Below, one piece after another: positions 25,945-32,117 of a stretch of 64,000 nt of DNA. The number at the start of each line of letters is the position of its first letter. Within the stretch, counting starts at the first letter, position 1. A program made the position numbers and the translations under genes. Below the pieces are notes generated by a model. It had not been told where the DNA came from, made no database searches, and saw nothing but the letters and a program-made list of their open reading frames with translations. Source of the DNA: Ktedonobacteraceae bacterium (lineage in GTDB: Bacteria > Chloroflexota > Ktedonobacteria > Ktedonobacterales > Ktedonobacteraceae); contig DATJHM010000048.1 of NCBI GenBank assembly GCA_035493895.1, positions 725 to 64,724 of the forward strand, read 5' to 3'.

Positions 25945-26265
25945 ATGTCTGATGATATGTATACTCCGTGGGGAATAGTGCGGGTAAAACAGCAGCTTGC
26001 GGAGGATGTGTTTCTGGTGCAAACGCCCGACGAGCAACATGGTGGTATTCTGATCTCTACCACCAGAGCCGAAGAGATCCTCAGTGATAAAGCGCGTACG
26101 ATCGGCCAGATCTGGCAGGAATTTCTGGCATTTGAGCAGGAATCGGCGATGATGGTGGTGTTCTATGAACATCCCGAACTCTATCCATGGGTTGAGGAGG
26201 ATTTGACGGCGCGTTTTGCGGAGGAGAGTGTGCGCGAGGGCTATCCTGGCTACTTTATCGCGTGA
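25945..26265 (+). CDS. hypothetical protein (106 aa)
   Basis: Clean ORF with acidic composition. It overlaps the 3' end of the convergent nuclease gene by 11 nt. I recognised no family. Confidence 0.45.
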   Translation: MSDDMYTPWGIVRVKQQLAEDVFLVQTPDEQHGGILISTTRAEEILSDKARTIGQIWQEFLAFEQESAMMVVFYEHPELYPWVEEDLTARFAEESVREGYPGYFIA

Positions 26266-27592
26266 TCTGTTTCCACCTGATAGTTTCTTTGAAGCGATCG
26301 AAGGCCGTTTTCGCCAGGAGATAACATTCCTGTCCGGTAATTGGCATCGATCCCACCTGTACCTGAATGGCATGTGCTGGCAGCTCTGTCAGCTGTGCGC
26401 GCCTACATTCATGCTCAGGCGATTGCCATGCGTAGCCACTTTTCATTGCCCAGTTGAGATAAAAAATGCACTCAATCAGGGCCATAAGGGCTTCCCGGTA
26501 ATCGCTGGGTTCTAACTGGTACTGGCAACCATCGTTTAAGTTGTAGAGAATCAGCTCCACAGGCTGACATAGGGACATTGGAATTTCTTGAAGTAAGCCG
26601 CGCGCCTCTTTGTACTGCGCGTTTTTGTTCCAGCGCGTCTGAAATGCGAGCCAGTAGGTCATGAGCTGCATTGCATGCGCGTGGGTAGGTTGTATGACTT
26701 CATTCGTCTCCTCCTCTTCCTCCGTGAGTTCCGCGAAGAGACCCGGGAGACTGGTCGCCGCTTTCTTTTTCCCACCCAGACCTTTTTTAAATTCGATAAT
26801 CGCCGGTATACCCTGCTGCTTGCGGGGGTCCTGTCCCTGTTCATGGCGCAGACGAATCTGGTCAAACTCTCCGATCAGGCAGACATAACCACCTCTATCT
26901 GGATGCTCTGCAAACGTGTTTTTTGTCGAGATCAGCTTGCATTGGAAGCGCTCCGAAGCGGTAAAAACGGTCGTATTGGTTTTTGCCAGCTCCTGCTGAT
27001 AACGGAGGATTGGCGCGCTTATGGTCGTCGCGAGCGTCCTTTTATCGTAGCTCAGCTCATTGAAAAATATCGCCAGATTCATCTTTCCGGCCTGCTGCAA
27101 TGCCTGAAGAAGATCCTGCTGGATAAATCGTGCAAGTGCATCAGTATTATCGAGTAGACGTATACGTAGATCTTGTGCAAGCGGACCTTTCTCGTCGTGC
27201 AGCACGTTCACGATGGTATGGAGAAGGGTGCCTACCATTCGTGGATCCGGGCACCCTTTGCCAAAAAGCGTTGTCTGTCGCGCTTGCATCATTTGTGTGG
27301 GCTCTTTTGTGCGCTTCTTTCGCTTTTGCACCAGCATACACCATGGGCATTCCAGGTAAGAAGCGAGCGAGGAATAGCTGACGGGACTGAGCACAAAAGG
27401 GTTGCGCACACGCTGAATTTTGAAGAGATTGTCGTAATTGAAGCTGACGGAGAGGGGAAGAGGCTGAGATGCCGCCTGAGCAGCAGTCAAAATGTGTGGA
27501 GTACCGATTAGCTTGCCTCTTTTCTCATTTTTGGCTGTCCTTGCATAGTGAGATCTTACAAAGCAAAACTCCGACTTCAGCCTATATTTCAA
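26255..27592 (-). CDS. PD-(D/E)XK nuclease superfamily protein (RecB/Cas4-like fold), start uncertain
   Basis: VSYSSLASYLECPWCM matches the N-terminal motif of PDDEXK_1 proteins. IGEFDQIRL...AIIEFKKG gives the D...ExK catalytic signature. The ORF-track start is a TTG. Confidence 0.6.
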   Translation of the reverse strand: MKYRLKSEFCFVRSHYARTAKNEKRGKLIGTPHILTAAQAASQPLPLSVSFNYDNLFKIQRVRNPFVLSPVSYSSLASYLECPWCMLVQKRKKRTKEPTQMMQARQTTLFGKGCPDPRMVGTLLHTIVNVLHDEKGPLAQDLRIRLLDNTDALARFIQQDLLQALQQAGKMNLAIFFNELSYDKRTLATTISAPILRYQQELAKTNTTVFTASERFQCKLISTKNTFAEHPDRGGYVCLIGEFDQIRLRHEQGQDPRKQQGIPAIIEFKKGLGGKKKAATSLPGLFAELTEEEEETNEVIQPTHAHAMQLMTYWLAFQTRWNKNAQYKEARGLLQEIPMSLCQPVELILYNLNDGCQYQLEPSDYREALMALIECIFYLNWAMKSGYAWQSPEHECRRAQLTELPAHAIQVQVGSMPITGQECYLLAKTAFDRFKETIRWKQITR

Positions 27593-27869
27593 CTATAACA
27601 TAGAAATGCATACTATGTCAAGTTATATCTTTTATGATTATGATGCTGTTGCAAAATTGCTGTTTATGTAGGTCGCGAAATGAATAAGTGGCACGAATCT
27701 ACATGAAACTCTCTGAAAATTATATCATTTATAGATGGGCTGTATGCGTAGCGGCGGGGTTGATCTCCAATGTCACGTAGATAACGTCTGTACCCGGTCA
27801 AACGTCATCGCCCCCGTTCGAACCGCTCCCCAGGCTCGCCCGGAACGCGTAGTACTCAGACAAATCTCA

Positions 27870-28225
27870 TTGCACCCGTTTGGGCAACCCTCGAAAAGGC
27901 TCCCCAGGCCAGTAGGGACGCCATGGAGGCACGGAATGGCGTCCGGGAACTCGCGCGATCCCGTTCGCTCCGCAGACGTGGCGTTGCACCCTTCCACCAT
28001 TTTGCGTGCCACAGAAAACGTGTGCCATAACGTTTGACGGCGTCCCACTGGTCTGCCAGGCGTCATGGTGTCTTTTCTCCCGCCAGGGACATGCGCTCGA
28101 GAAGCTCGTAGAAGGGCGAGATGGTCGGTGGGGGCGGACGCCATTCGCCATGGTGCCCCTACTGAGAAAAGATGCCACGACGGAAATGATGGGAGATTCT
28201 CTTTCTCTCCGTGACAGTGCGGCTT
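27870..28225. repeat. Composite repeat Y, copy 1 (REP family a head, then GAACTCGCG...GCTCCGCAGACG body, GGCGAGATGGNCGGTGGGGGCGGA box, second REP)
   Basis: About 88% identical by eye to 28648-28995. It contains REPs at 27912-27945 and 28136-28162. Confidence 0.75.
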
Positions 28226-28239
28226 GTCTCATAAACTCC

Positions 28240-28542
28240 AACACATTCATGCCCCAAAAAAAGAATCTCGCAGAGACTCTTCAGAAATCTCACCATACGC
28301 CGAATATACCTATTAGGAGGGGCAAACACTCCCTACCGCCCGGCACTCACACCCACGATGTCGCCTGAAAGAGGGACAGTGCAACATCGGCATGGGGACA
28401 CGTGCAGTGCTAATATAGGGGAGCGTGCCAGGAGAAGATCTCGCTGCAATCGGCATCAGTGTAGGTGATGTAGGATGTGTAGCATTTTAGGAAAAAGCGT
28501 GGTAGCGCATCAGTGTAGGTGATGTAGGATGTGTAGCATTTT
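28240..28542 (+). repeat. Repeat family X, copy C (partial), with a perfect 35-nt direct repeat
   Basis: Homologous to 10577-10969. CATCAGTGTAGGTGATGTAGGATGTGTAGCATTTT occurs twice, at 28454-28488 and 28508-28542. Confidence 0.7.
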
Positions 28543-28647
28543 GGAGATTCCTGTATGGATTTTGTGACATCGCTGCTTGTCTGCGACCGGGCCGATTCCA
28601 ACAAATTCACGTAGAGAAGGCGAATCTCCGATCAATTTCGTCGCATC

Positions 28648-28995
28648 CGGTCAAACGTTGCACCCGTTGGCACCGCTCCCCAGGCCAGTAGGGACGCCAT
28701 GGAGGCACGGAATGGCGTCCGCGAACTCGCGTGATCCCGTTGGCTCCGCAGACGTGGCGTTGCGCCCTTTCCACGGTTTCGTGTGCCACCGAAAATGTGT
28801 GCCATGACCTTTGACGGCGTCCCACTGGTCTCTCAAGCGTCATGGTGTCTTTTCTCCCACCAGGAACATGCGCTCGAGAAGCTTCTAGAAAGGCGAGATG
28901 GCCGGTGGGGGCGGACTGAGAAAAGATGTAACGAAGGTGGTCAGAGCACGACGGAAATGATGGGAGATTCCCCTTCTTTCCGTAACATTGCCCCA
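28648..28995. repeat. Composite repeat Y, copy 2 (lacks the second REP hairpin)
   Basis: The body matches 27870-28225, with a REP at 28688-28721. At 28916/28917 the 23-nt REP present in copy 1 (28140-28162) is precisely absent. Confidence 0.75.
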
Positions 28996-29066
28996 ATGCT
29001 ACGAATGGTGCGCGTAGGACGGATGGTCTCCGCCCTACGCTAAATGTCCATTCAGAGATGAATGTT

Positions 29067-30602
29067 CTACGGCAGGGAGTTAAGGTGCGGCTTGACCGTA
29101 TTGGCATAGTTGTAGCCGTTGGAGGCGTCCCAGTTGATGGCCCAGGTCATCGCTCCACGAAGGCCAGGGTACGTGGTCGATGGCTTAAATGAGCCACAAT
29201 TGGTGCCCAGCTCCAGACAATCAAGCGCGGCATTGACCACCGATGGCGCGATATAGCCACCGCCAGCAGCCGTCGTTGCCGGGGTCCCGATGCCAACCTG
29301 GTCCGGACGCAGTCCACCTTGCAACTGAATACATGCCAGAGCGGTCAGGAAATTCTCGGTGCCCGACGCGTAGACGTTGCCATCGCAGCCAAGCATCGTG
29401 CCTGAGTTATAGTACTGCATATTGACGATCGTGAGGATGTTCTTGATGTTCAACGCGAGCTGGAAGTAGGAGCCTGACGTCGATTGCATATCGATGGTCT
29501 GCGGGGCCAGCGTAATGATCAGGCTGGAACCGGCCTTTGCGGACAATTGCTGCAATGCGCTTGCCATATAGGTCGCGTTGACGCCATTCTCAAGATCGAT
29601 ATCGACGCCATCGAATTTGTAGGTCGTCATCAGCGAATACACGCTATTGGCGAAGTTGGCGGCGCTGGTCGAGTCGGCGACACTGATCGTCCCATTTTGA
29701 CCGCCAACCGAGATGATCACTTTCTTGCCCTGTGCATGCAGCGTGGCGATATCGCTGGTGAACTGAGCATCGCTATAGCCACCGAGTGCCGACGAGAGTG
29801 CCGGGTCGACGCTGAATGTGACTCCACCGGGTTTGGTTGGATCGGCGTTAGCGAAAGCGACGGCGATGAGATCGTAATTAGCGTTGACCGCGCTCAGACG
29901 CAAGGCCGTTGCGCCGTTCGTGAAATCTTGCCAGTAACCGGTCAGCACATGTTTGGGCAGGCTTCCACCGCAGTTCGTGCATGGCGTAGGCGTAGCTGTA
30001 GGGATTGTTGTGGGCGTTGGTGTGGGGGGCGTGGTAGTAGGCGTGGTGGTTGGCCTCGGTGTGGGTGTATTCGTTGGCACAGGCGTCGGGGTACTGGTGC
30101 CTCCCGGGCCGGTGAGTGCTACATCGTCGACGAGGACGCTGGCCTGCGCATACCAGCCATGGACATAAATAGTAACGCTGCTGGTTGAGGCCGTCGTTGT
30201 GAACGTATACGAGAGTGCGGTATAGCTGCTGCTGTTGGTCCAGGTGTTACTGTAGTTATTGACGCCGAGATAGGCATAGGGACCACTCACGTAGGCGCTC
30301 AAGGTATAGGCGGTGTTGGGCTGGACGCTGATGGTCTGGGCACACTGTCCAGTCGTGGCACTGGTCGGGTTCATTTGTAGCGCGTAAGATCCGCTGTGGA
30401 CCGGGCTGCCGACGGTCGTGTCGCCGGAATCGCAGGTCCAGCCGCTCAACGTCCCGGTCTCGAACCCTGGATTGGTGGCCAGGTTGTTGGAAGCGGCAAA
30501 CGCGGGAGATACCGAATTGAAGAACAGGATGGCACCAATGCTCCCAATGAGCAGCATGCCAGTAACGGAGATGAGCATGAGATGACGATAGGAACGCTGC
30601 AT
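29067..30602 (-). CDS. secreted GH18 chitinase with N-terminal carbohydrate-binding module and Pro/Thr linker
   Basis: Signal/TM segment, a CBM-like NLATNPGFETGTLSGW, a linker TPTPVPTNTPTPRPTTTPTTTPPTPTPT, and the GH18 catalytic motif FDGVDIDLE (DxxDxDxE). Confidence 0.9.
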   Translation of the reverse strand: MQRSYRHLMLISVTGMLLIGSIGAILFFNSVSPAFAASNNLATNPGFETGTLSGWTCDSGDTTVGSPVHSGSYALQMNPTSATTGQCAQTISVQPNTAYTLSAYVSGPYAYLGVNNYSNTWTNSSSYTALSYTFTTTASTSSVTIYVHGWYAQASVLVDDVALTGPGGTSTPTPVPTNTPTPRPTTTPTTTPPTPTPTTIPTATPTPCTNCGGSLPKHVLTGYWQDFTNGATALRLSAVNANYDLIAVAFANADPTKPGGVTFSVDPALSSALGGYSDAQFTSDIATLHAQGKKVIISVGGQNGTISVADSTSAANFANSVYSLMTTYKFDGVDIDLENGVNATYMASALQQLSAKAGSSLIITLAPQTIDMQSTSGSYFQLALNIKNILTIVNMQYYNSGTMLGCDGNVYASGTENFLTALACIQLQGGLRPDQVGIGTPATTAAGGGYIAPSVVNAALDCLELGTNCGSFKPSTTYPGLRGAMTWAINWDASNGYNYANTVKPHLNSLP

Positions 30603-30998
30603 GTTTAGCTCTCCTTGCGATCATGCGCATAGTCCTCATCCAATAGGGATGAGCTGATCCATATCAATTGCTAATGCCATACGCGATAGGGATAGGAGGG
30701 GTGCATAAAAAATAGGCTTTCAGGGGTAATAGCCGATAACGTCGACCGGTATGGCACCAGGCTCTACAAGCAAGAATAGTAGGTTATGGTTATATTGTCA
30801 AGTTATCTATACCAGTTGGGCTAGAGATTTTCGAGTGTTGAAATGCTTCTCAACAAAGAGAGATCCATACAATCTCCGTTAATGGCTTGTTAAGCCTGAG
30901 ATATACGCTTGTCAGGCTTGACGAAAGGATTCTCACGTGCATACTCTGAAAGAAAGTGCAGAAATGCAGAGTGATGTTAGCTCTGGAAAGGCGGGTCT

Positions 30999-32117
30999 AT
31001 GAGCACGAATCGTGCCACGGAGGTCATTATCATTGGGGGAGGAGTGATCGGCTCTTCTATTGCCTATTATTTGCGCAAGCGTGGTGCGGAGGTTGCGGTT
31101 GTCGAGAAAGGCGTTGTTGCGGCTGAAGCATCCAGTGCCGCAGCGGGTCTGATAGCGCCACTGGATGGGCTCTTCGAATCGGAGGCATTTGCGCGTCTGG
31201 TGCTGGAGAGCTGGTTTTCATTTCCCGATCTTATTGCAACGCTCGAAGAGATGACCGGCGTAGGGGTAGAATTCTATCACCCGGGCTCTATTCGTATCGC
31301 ACGGAAAAGTGAGCACGAACAGGTACAGACGTACATGAAGACCTGGAAGCAGCATAACTTGCCAGCGACGTGGCTCACGGGAGATGAGGCGCGAGCACAG
31401 GAACCGTTGCTCTATGCTGGAGCTGAAGCAGCCATTTTTGGACCTCAGGAGGCGAGTCTCAAGCCTGAACTGCTGACCAGAGCCTATGCTGAAGCTGCAC
31501 GCAAACTGGGGGTGCATTTCTACGAACATACCGAGGTCACGGGTATTGTGCGTAGCGCTTCTCGCGTTACTGGCGTAAAAACGGCCTCTGGCGAAACGAT
31601 TACCGGTAGTCATCTGGTGATCGCTACGGGAGCATGGGCGGCGCATTGTGGGGAGTGGTTGGATGTGCCTTTGCCCGTGAGCCCTTTGCGTGGTCAGATC
31701 CTCGCGCTCAAGCAGCCTGAAGTACCATTGCAACGTATCATCTTTGCCAACGGTATCTACCTCGTGCCGAAGCTCGATAATACCATCTACGTCGGTGCAT
31801 CACTTGAGCATGCCGGTTTCGATAAAGCGATCACCGCTGGGCGTATCGCTGAACTGCTGACCAGCGCCATTGCGGTCGTACCCTCGCTTGAGGATGCCCC
31901 CATTGCGCGCATCTGGGCTGGCCTACGCCCCTGGTCGTCGGATGGCAAGCCCATCATGGGGAAAGCGCCCAACTGGGAGAATGTCACAGTGGCGACCGGT
32001 CATGGTGCGATGGGCATTAGCTTGAGTCCGGTGACGGGTCAGGCGATGGCCGAGCTCATCACCACGGGACAGACGCCAGAAATCCTGCGTCCCTTTGGTG
32101 TCGAGCGGTTTATGTAA
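30999..32117 (+). CDS. FAD-dependent oxidoreductase, glycine oxidase (ThiO)-like
   Basis: VIIIGGGVIGSSIAYYLRKRG dinucleotide-binding motif, DAO-family length (372 aa), and a C-terminal HGAMGISLSP. Confidence 0.75.
   Translation: MSTNRATEVIIIGGGVIGSSIAYYLRKRGAEVAVVEKGVVAAEASSAAAGLIAPLDGLFESEAFARLVLESWFSFPDLIATLEEMTGVGVEFYHPGSIRIARKSEHEQVQTYMKTWKQHNLPATWLTGDEARAQEPLLYAGAEAAIFGPQEASLKPELLTRAYAEAARKLGVHFYEHTEVTGIVRSASRVTGVKTASGETITGSHLVIATGAWAAHCGEWLDVPLPVSPLRGQILALKQPEVPLQRIIFANGIYLVPKLDNTIYVGASLEHAGFDKAITAGRIAELLTSAIAVVPSLEDAPIARIWAGLRPWSSDGKPIMGKAPNWENVTVATGHGAMGISLSPVTGQAMAELITTGQTPEILRPFGVERFM

Follow-up and report, generated by a model that had tools for sequence, protein, structure and literature searches.

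In the window, the whole stretch of 64,000 nucleotides from contig C48 that was analysed here, two copies of a composite repeat, Y, lie together in a non-coding intergenic gap of 1.47 kb (27592 to 29067). The gap is flanked on one side by a gene on the minus strand (26255-27592) with a faint PD-(D/E)XK match, and on the other side by a second minus-strand gene (29067-30602), which encodes a CBM4_9 module and a GH18 domain. The assembly is of the metagenome type, fragmented into 346 contigs that amount to 8.05 Mb, and 95% complete. A scan of positions 26000-31000 against Rfam (E<=1) returned no match, hence Y corresponds to no known RNA, and the Pfam scan of the four ORFs that overlap Y gave no match either. 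In the MAFFT alignment of the Y copies, the lengths of the indels are not multiples of three. A further palindrome (GCGTAGGACGGATGGTCTCCGCCCTACGC, 28996-29040), with GTAG on both strands, adjoins the end of copy 2, a short distance ahead of the stop of the GH18 gene.

It had been read from the sequence alone that Y occurs twice at about 88% identity, and this agrees well with our global pairwise alignment of copy 1 (27884-28225) with copy 2 (28660-28995), which gave 88.4% identity over 318 aligned pairs. The bounds proposed at that time were too short, as outer modules extend both copies (Table 1). Using Y as query in a BLAST search of the genome, we found about 23 copies that are nearly full in length, together with considerably more than a hundred fragments. 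The order of the modules is fixed across the Y copies in the MAFFT alignment: an outer module (AATGTCACG...), a linker, the REP-A module, a middle part, an inverted REP-B module that ends with ...GATGGCCGGTGGGGGC GGACGCCAT TCGCC ATGGCGTCC CTAC, and an inverted outer module. The two ends of Y are thus inverted copies of an outer module of about 45 nt, and no consistent target-site duplication was evident when we looked at the flanks of the Y copies. Because the outer module alone is present in 187 copies across many other contexts, Y appears to be one frequent arrangement in a BIME-like mosaic and not a clearly bounded MITE. Copy 1 contains about 74 extra nucleotides (27836-27909) between two diverged copies of CCGCTCCCCAGGC, and this extra DNA resembles a module on C247 and C208.

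The hairpins within Y belong to a larger family, referred to as family a, with the general structure GTAG-GGACGCCAT-loop-ATGGCGTCC. A genome-wide census with fixed patterns, by which diverged copies are missed, identified 126 copies in three loop classes, and exactly GTAG stands before the 9-bp arms GGACGCCAT/ATGGCGTCC in 120 of them. The hairpin folds to a 9-bp stem. In the short-loop class the full REP measures 27 nt, composed of GTAG, a 9-nt arm, a 5-nt loop and a second 9-nt arm. The flank in front of GTAG is variable among the copies, with CA at this position in 86/126. The hairpin is followed by the tail [G/A]CCCCCACCGGCC in 38 of the 39 short-loop copies, and by G[G/C]GAACTCGC in the long-loop classes. 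Since the flank beyond GTAG varies and the sequence after the hairpin is conserved, GTAG marks the boundary of a unit that consists of head, hairpin and tail. The box itself stands beside hairpins of many sequence families, with about 376-498 occurrences genome-wide; a generic stem-based classifier for box-linked hairpins proved too strict for families with imperfect stems and was not used as a census.

Family a has the properties of GTAG-tagged REPs, namely GTAG next to a short palindrome, a high copy number and a non-coding position in the window. The arrangement in Y is not that of a REPIN: REP-A and REP-B are inverted but lie about 190 nt apart and have unrelated tails, and no long inverted repeat joining the two was found in the window. 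In about 9 of the 126 family-a REPs (for example C34:9592, C187:27942, C312:10267, C336:18876, C316:12241 and C87:7191) the loop is reverse-complemented between unchanged arms, as in the pairs GGAGGCACGGA and TCCGTGCCTCC, GAAGCCGCAGCTGA and TCAGCTGCGGCTTC, and GGCGA and TCGCC. This suggests loop inversion, which may have taken place via template switching or by recombination between the arms. Furthermore, partial REP units, which lack the GTAG head and consist of loop, far arm and box, form tandem arrays at C76:840-990, C322:13772-13900 and C34:9801-9860, where only the last unit is complete.

Table 1. Features of the two Y copies and junctions of the family-a deletions. A slash marks the breakpoint; locations without a contig name are positions in the window.
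Feature	Location	Strand	Remarks
Composite repeat Y, copy 1	27769..28220	+	bounds approximate; one of about 23 near-full genomic copies
Module order of Y copy 1			outer AATGTCACG..., 74-nt extra segment, REP-A module, middle, box and inverted REP-B module, inverted outer module
REP-A of copy 1	27912..27944	+	GTAG GGACGCCAT GGAGGCACGGA ATGGCGTCC, then tail GGGAACTCGC; regex census; folds to 9-bp stem
Conserved box GATGGTCGGTGGGGGC (GCCCCCACCGACCATC on REP strand)	28120..28135	-	follows the hairpin throughout the REP superfamily
REP-B of copy 1, full 27-nt unit	28136..28162	-	degenerate: GGACGCCAT TCGCC ATGGTGCCC CTAC; consensus arm ATGGCGTCC
23 nt present in copy 1, missing from copy 2	28140..28162	-	pairwise alignment
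54-nt-period tandem repeat, GTAG-rich	28453..28542	+	between the Y copies; two units in the window
Composite repeat Y, copy 2	28603..28991	+	bounds approximate; subfamily with 17-nt insert
REP-A of copy 2	28688..28720	+	intact; regex census
Gene-conversion tract in Y copy 2	28722..28790	+	ten consecutive variant positions; copy 2 of L034 has copy 1 bases
REP-B stump of copy 2	28913..28916	-	GTCC (GGAC on +) directly joined to TGAGAAAAG
17-nt segment AACGAAGGTGGTCAGAG	28930-28946	+	Y-subfamily marker in copy 2, absent from copy 1 (alignments)
Deletion in copy 2		REP strand	TCTTTTCTCA/GTCC-GCCCCC; 23 nt deleted
Deletion on C342	C342:27244	REP strand	...CCGTCCT/GTCC-ACCCCC; 23 nt deleted, one substitution at the joint
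Deletion on C336	C336:18687	REP strand	TGTTCTCA/GCGTCC-GCCCCC; 21 nt deleted
Deletion on C272	C272:29079	REP strand	CCCAGGCCA/GCGTCC-GGGAAC; 27 nt deleted
Deletion on C220	C220:22569	REP strand	TGACTGAGCA/GCGTCC-GGGAAC; 27 nt deleted; both flanks align to full copy C85:17319
Deletion on C208	C208:28672	REP strand	TGACTGAGCA/GCGTCC-GGCCAGCCAA

The global alignment of the two copies bears out the 23-nt presence/absence that the sequence-only reading had pointed out. Copy 1 reads GGTGGGGGCGGAC/GCCATTCGCCATGGTGCCCCTAC/TGAGAAAAG and copy 2 reads GGTGGGGGCGGAC/TGAGAAAAG, a single gap, with the junction in copy 2 at 28916/28917. Its placement is ambiguous by 2 nt, because AC stands at both edges. The missing piece had been described as exactly the stem-loop plus CTAC of one clean REP unit. 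Neither part of this description fits the family: the consensus, GGACGCCAT-TCGCC-ATGGCGTCC-CTAC, measures 27 nt and the gap only 23 nt, therefore the GGAC bases of one arm persist in copy 2 together with the box, and no free unit of 23 or 27 nt was seen, the short-loop copies being joined to the same box tail. As four nucleotides of the far arm and the box remain, copy 2 represents a truncated unit and no empty target site. On the REP strand the loss reads CA/GTAGGGACGCCATGGCGAATGGC/GTCC-GCCCCCACC; the GTAG head, the near arm, the loop and five of the nine nucleotides of the far arm are gone, and the last four nucleotides of the far arm are kept. In copy 1, the canonical stem of REP-B is weakened in the fold.

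In a maximum-likelihood tree of 23 Y copies (IQ-TREE), calculated with the indel site left out, copy 2 forms a clade with the copies on C106, C150 and C120 at 97% support. Those on C150 and C120 have the full hairpin, and the one on C106 has a partial hairpin. Moreover, the hairpin occupies exactly the same position in at least 17 of these 23 Y copies, which come from throughout the tree. Given this frequency and the nesting of copy 2 among hairpin-bearing copies, its lack of the hairpin is a derived deletion. The sequence-only reading had left it at an insertion or excision footprint; the loss of a family REP (GTAG-GGACGCCAT-loop-ATGGCGTCC) is retained from this, whereas an insertion is at odds with the tree. 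The only other Y copy without a hairpin, on C336, is located elsewhere in the tree and has the junction GGACGC/TGAGAAC, a deletion of 21 nt. In further Y copies, this site shows a 13-nt deletion (C106, C109), a 28-nt tandem duplication (C34) or a different hairpin (C153). The deletion of 13 nt (GGGGGCGGACGCC), through which one arm and a portion of the box are lost, is identical in C106:126382-126899 and C109:967-1478, and these two Y copies are not sisters in the tree. Ragged endpoints among the genomic Y copies had been named as an outcome that would speak against a precise REP-sized indel. Such variation was in part found, as the deletions at this site measure 23, 21 or 13 nt and a duplication of 28 nt also occurs, yet the endpoints are not random, as six deletions share one geometry (see below).

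The JGI contig L034, which derives from another sample, covers the whole intergenic region at 98.85% identity and matches both sites letter for letter. It shares the junction of copy 2 as well as the degenerate hairpin of copy 1 and differs elsewhere. Because this independent contig has the identical junction, the latter is no assembly artefact, and its presence in both strains implies that the deletion predates the split of the strains. At ten consecutive variant positions in copy 2 (Table 1), L034 carries the bases of copy 1. This is gene conversion between Y copies 777 bp apart, with a tract of at least 69 bp, and provides direct evidence that the Y copies recombine. The view that the locus gives direct evidence of mobile or recombinogenic elements is thus upheld for recombination, through the tract that differs between the strains, but not through the indel, which itself is no direct evidence. 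The deletion in copy 2 is old and fixed in two strains that later diverged by gene conversion between their Y copies. The 54-nt tandem repeat between the copies is polymorphic in copy number, with three units in L034 (54 extra nt).

The stump on C220 was found to be identical in three other samples. Of the other stump loci looked up through their neighbouring genes, those on C272 and C208 gave no record, and the contig from a second sample that corresponds to C342 stops short of the site. Eleven metagenome contigs with full-hairpin Y copies all came from sample Ga0310811 and, being 99.8-100% identical to this genome, show no polymorphism. No site that is polymorphic for the presence of the hairpin was found among the assembled contigs compared (L034, the C220 site in three more samples and the 11 Ga0310811 contigs), and a unique 31-mer beside copy 2 had 0 matches in the metagenome scans.

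For the search for further deletions, all family-a tails were inspected, pairs of flanks were searched and stumps were aligned to full relatives. The flank-pair search with exact 10-mers gave mostly chance matches, and only those with support from repeated flanks were kept. At least six internal deletions of family-a REPs were identified genome-wide, in different flank contexts (Table 1). All six have lost everything from the complete GTAG head through the near arm and the loop into the far arm, of which the final 4 or 6 nt (GTCC or GCGTCC) are left. The microhomology at the breakpoints amounts to GT (2 nt) or G (1 nt). A longer direct repeat of 4 nt, GGGA, brackets the A-type hairpins (GTAGGGAACTC), and the product expected from it was absent from REP contexts genome-wide. 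Family d, a REP family with a weaker stem, has one partial copy only, in which GTAG is kept, as against six deletions in family a with its perfect stem. Judged from their differing flanks and not from a dated phylogeny, the six deletions are likely to be independent, so that the hairpin would have been lost at least six separate times. From the recurrence of the same lopsided loss it follows that the hairpins are removed in a repeatable way.

Three matches to Y1 transposases were obtained in the genome. One of them, outside the window, is a single-copy RAYT gene of 160 aa at about 11478-11960 of C286 (L003:1423-1905), which scored 82.1 bits for NF047646 at a cut-off of 80. Both of its flanks consist of arrays of CAGTAG-[A/T]GGCACGGT...ACTGTGCC-T-GGGAACTCGC. 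These are the family-d REPs, of which there are about 110 copies; they have the head (CAGTAG) and the tail (GGGAACTCGC) in common with the family-a REP-A, and a different hairpin. The RAYT gene and its flanking family-d REPs can be considered a putative REPtron. A RAYT flanked by family a was not found in the 95%-complete assembly. The other two matches belong to IS200/IS605-type pairs of tnpA (129-133 aa) and tnpB (459 aa) at C300:1500-3950 and C179:8430-10200 (L001, L002), and neither pair carries family-a or box sequences. An IS200/IS605 element as the identity of the locus was rejected, as these pairs lie elsewhere and are unrelated to the REP families.

Several explanations may be considered for the junction in copy 2. 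The assembly is fragmented and contains many near-identical repeats, which might give rise to an assembly or sequencing artefact at a palindrome within a repeat. This is hardly credible, considering that L034 from a different sample has both the identical junction and the identical degenerate hairpin of copy 1, and that the C220 stump is reproduced in three other samples. Very improbable, too, is the alternative offered by the sequence-only reading, according to which copy 1 gained the hairpin by insertion and copy 2 shows the target site in its empty state. It would be in line with GTAG as a unit boundary in front of which the flank varies, and the 5' tail of the piece that would have been excised is complementary to the stump, hence a refilling might be conceivable. 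However, an insertion would need many parallel gains, because the Y copies that have the hairpin are spread across the tree with copy 2 nested among them; in addition, copy 2 still has parts of the unit (the box together with 4 nt of the arm), and the hairpin was never seen free of its tail. A somewhat better, although still improbable, proposal is that the deletion originated at another site and that copy 2 received it by gene conversion from a different copy without the hairpin. Conversion from Y to Y is directly seen at this locus, but the observed tract ends about 125 nt short of the indel site. Moreover, the junction sequence of copy 2, TCTTTTCTCA/GTCCGCCCCC, is without a donor of the same junction and flanks in the assembly, since C336 has a 21-nt deletion and C342 another flank past the junction.

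We favour a bypass of the folded hairpin by the polymerase, that is, slipped mispairing, which in our estimation stands about an even chance of being correct. During replication, the single-stranded REP strand would fold into the 9-bp GC-rich hairpin. The polymerase would enter the base of the stem for a few nucleotides and then stall, and the nascent end might re-pair just past the structure, at the GT (or G) that opens GTAG, so that the folded part would be skipped. With the same hairpin sequence at all loci, one misalignment would be preferred every time. Weston-Hafer and Berg reportedly described in 1989 that one deletion endpoint falls slightly within the stem, the other beyond its opposite side. 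A passage in PMC3733652, which cites Sinden 1991 and Bzymek & Lovett 2001, states that hairpins stall replication and that the frequency of deletion is governed by stem stability. Polymerase bypass is consistent with the GT/GT microhomology at the 23-nt deletion and with slippage-type errors at the same hairpins, such as the tandem duplication on C34, the partial-REP arrays on C76 and C322 and the loop inversions. The perfect-stem family a is far more affected than the weaker-stem family d, and this bias fits a structure-driven process. Other observations are less easily explained by bypass: four of the six events (those with GCGTCC left) have only 1 nt of microhomology and yet identical positions recur, the unpaired GTAG head is wholly removed each time, and the better 4-nt repeat GGGA has left no product in REP contexts. 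In addition, with 6 bp of the stem melted, only 3 bp would be left to block the polymerase. The geometry also equals that of the REPIN excisions of P. fluorescens, which were read by the authors as a possible transposition intermediate (PMC3116915). In the main rival reading, which we consider possible but clearly less probable than bypass, the six fixed losses are donor-site footprints of the excision of single REPs by the RAYT or by another nuclease specific for GTAG and the hairpin. The folded single-stranded REP would be cut after the CA before GTAG and a second time inside the far arm; the hairpin with its 5' tail would be released and the donor sealed, with a stump of 4 or 6 nt. It is the one asymmetric geometry of six deletions that keeps the excision reading alive, as the independent losses begin precisely with the initial G of GTAG and spare the final 4-6 nt. 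The genome does contain a RAYT gene, flanked by GTAG REPs with the head and the tail of family a, and the near breakpoint follows CA, which is found before GTAG in most copies and is a documented cleavage dinucleotide of one TnpA-REP (PMC8266576). The minimal microhomology and the missing 4-nt-repeat product also point in this direction, as does the agreement with the REPIN excisions of P. fluorescens SBW25 (PMC3116915). On the other hand, the far breakpoints (ATG/GCGTCC and ATGGC/GTCC) do not lie at CT or CA, the sole cleavage dinucleotides shown for TnpA-REP (PMC8266576), and the far endpoint is not the same in all events but takes two forms. The fold-back onto the guide tetranucleotide that the IS608-type model demands would presumably be impossible for a cleavage site directly adjacent to it. 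Excisions of singlet REPs were not found by Bertels & Rainey (PMC3116915), family d, which flanks the RAYT, is nearly without such footprints, and the assembled contigs compared here revealed no polymorphic site.

With regard to their distribution, the exact REP and Y were not found outside this population in our searches of DNA databases. An exact search for the short-loop REP in 185,579 species genomes gave 0 matches; a loose REP pattern gave 13 sporadic single matches in unrelated taxa of the same set, which were taken as chance. In a DNA search of 30 related genomes with the locus, Y was not found and only the flanking genes matched, at 70-74%, and no synteny of the locus was present in a genome of the same genus. 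We found no paper that links REPs with Ktedonobacter or Ktedonobacteria.

The spread and the disappearance of REPs are still poorly understood. To our knowledge, direct observations of REP loss are limited to a handful of sequencing reads from one Pseudomonas strain. The same asymmetric loss, fixed at six loci in a distant phylum, offers a set of natural donor-site junctions, and excision can be tested against the six junctions in vitro, with one candidate transposase on a substrate that is defined (27-33 nt). If excision is true, the hairpin that is lost, with GTAG as its 5' tail, would be a mobile or degraded intermediate, which was proposed but never proven for REPINs. If plain replication slippage is responsible, the deletions would be ordinary repeat decay, yet the geometry taken for excision would be shown to be possible without a transposase. 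The indel itself is ordinary repeat decay unless enzyme-mediated excision holds, and the part worth following up is the recurrent geometry.

GTAG-tagged REPs and RAYTs are well known, also from Chloroflexi (PMC3733652). The system described here resembles the known REPtrons (PMC3733652, PMC8266576) in the GTAG head next to a short palindrome, in more than 100 extragenic copies, in several families per genome, in the single-copy Y1 transposase gene flanked by REPs and in the variable flank beyond GTAG. It differs from them in that a conserved tail (either the box CCCCCACCGGCCATC or GGGAACTCGC) is attached to each hairpin, that the REPs are built into composite repeats of about 390 nt, and that the RAYT is flanked by family d and not by family a, which carries the indel. 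The REPIN excisions in SBW25 take away the invariant sequence from its beginning onwards and spare roughly the final 6 bp, and the excised piece is a hairpin with a 5' tail (PMC3116915). The geometry in our genome is the same (Bertels & Rainey 2011, PMC3116915), and the lost piece likewise folds as a hairpin with a 5' single-stranded tail. The events in SBW25 concern doublets (REPINs) that were detected in rare reads from a population, in which no singlet losses were found, whereas here single hairpins are lost and the footprints are fixed.

Palindrome-stimulated slipped-strand deletion in E. coli is reported to have one endpoint within the first bases of the stem and the other immediately beyond its far side, to use short microhomology and to be accompanied by duplications and loop inversions at the same hairpins, as in our genome. 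The events described here differ in that the microhomology does not exceed 1-2 nt, that the better repeat of 4 nt goes unused and that the endpoints are reproducible at six loci. Finally, the locus is similar to BIMEs in being an intergenic mosaic in which REPs in alternating orientation are interleaved with other conserved short modules. Unlike in BIMEs, these modules differ in sequence, and Y, a single arrangement of fixed order, is repeated as a whole about 23 times.
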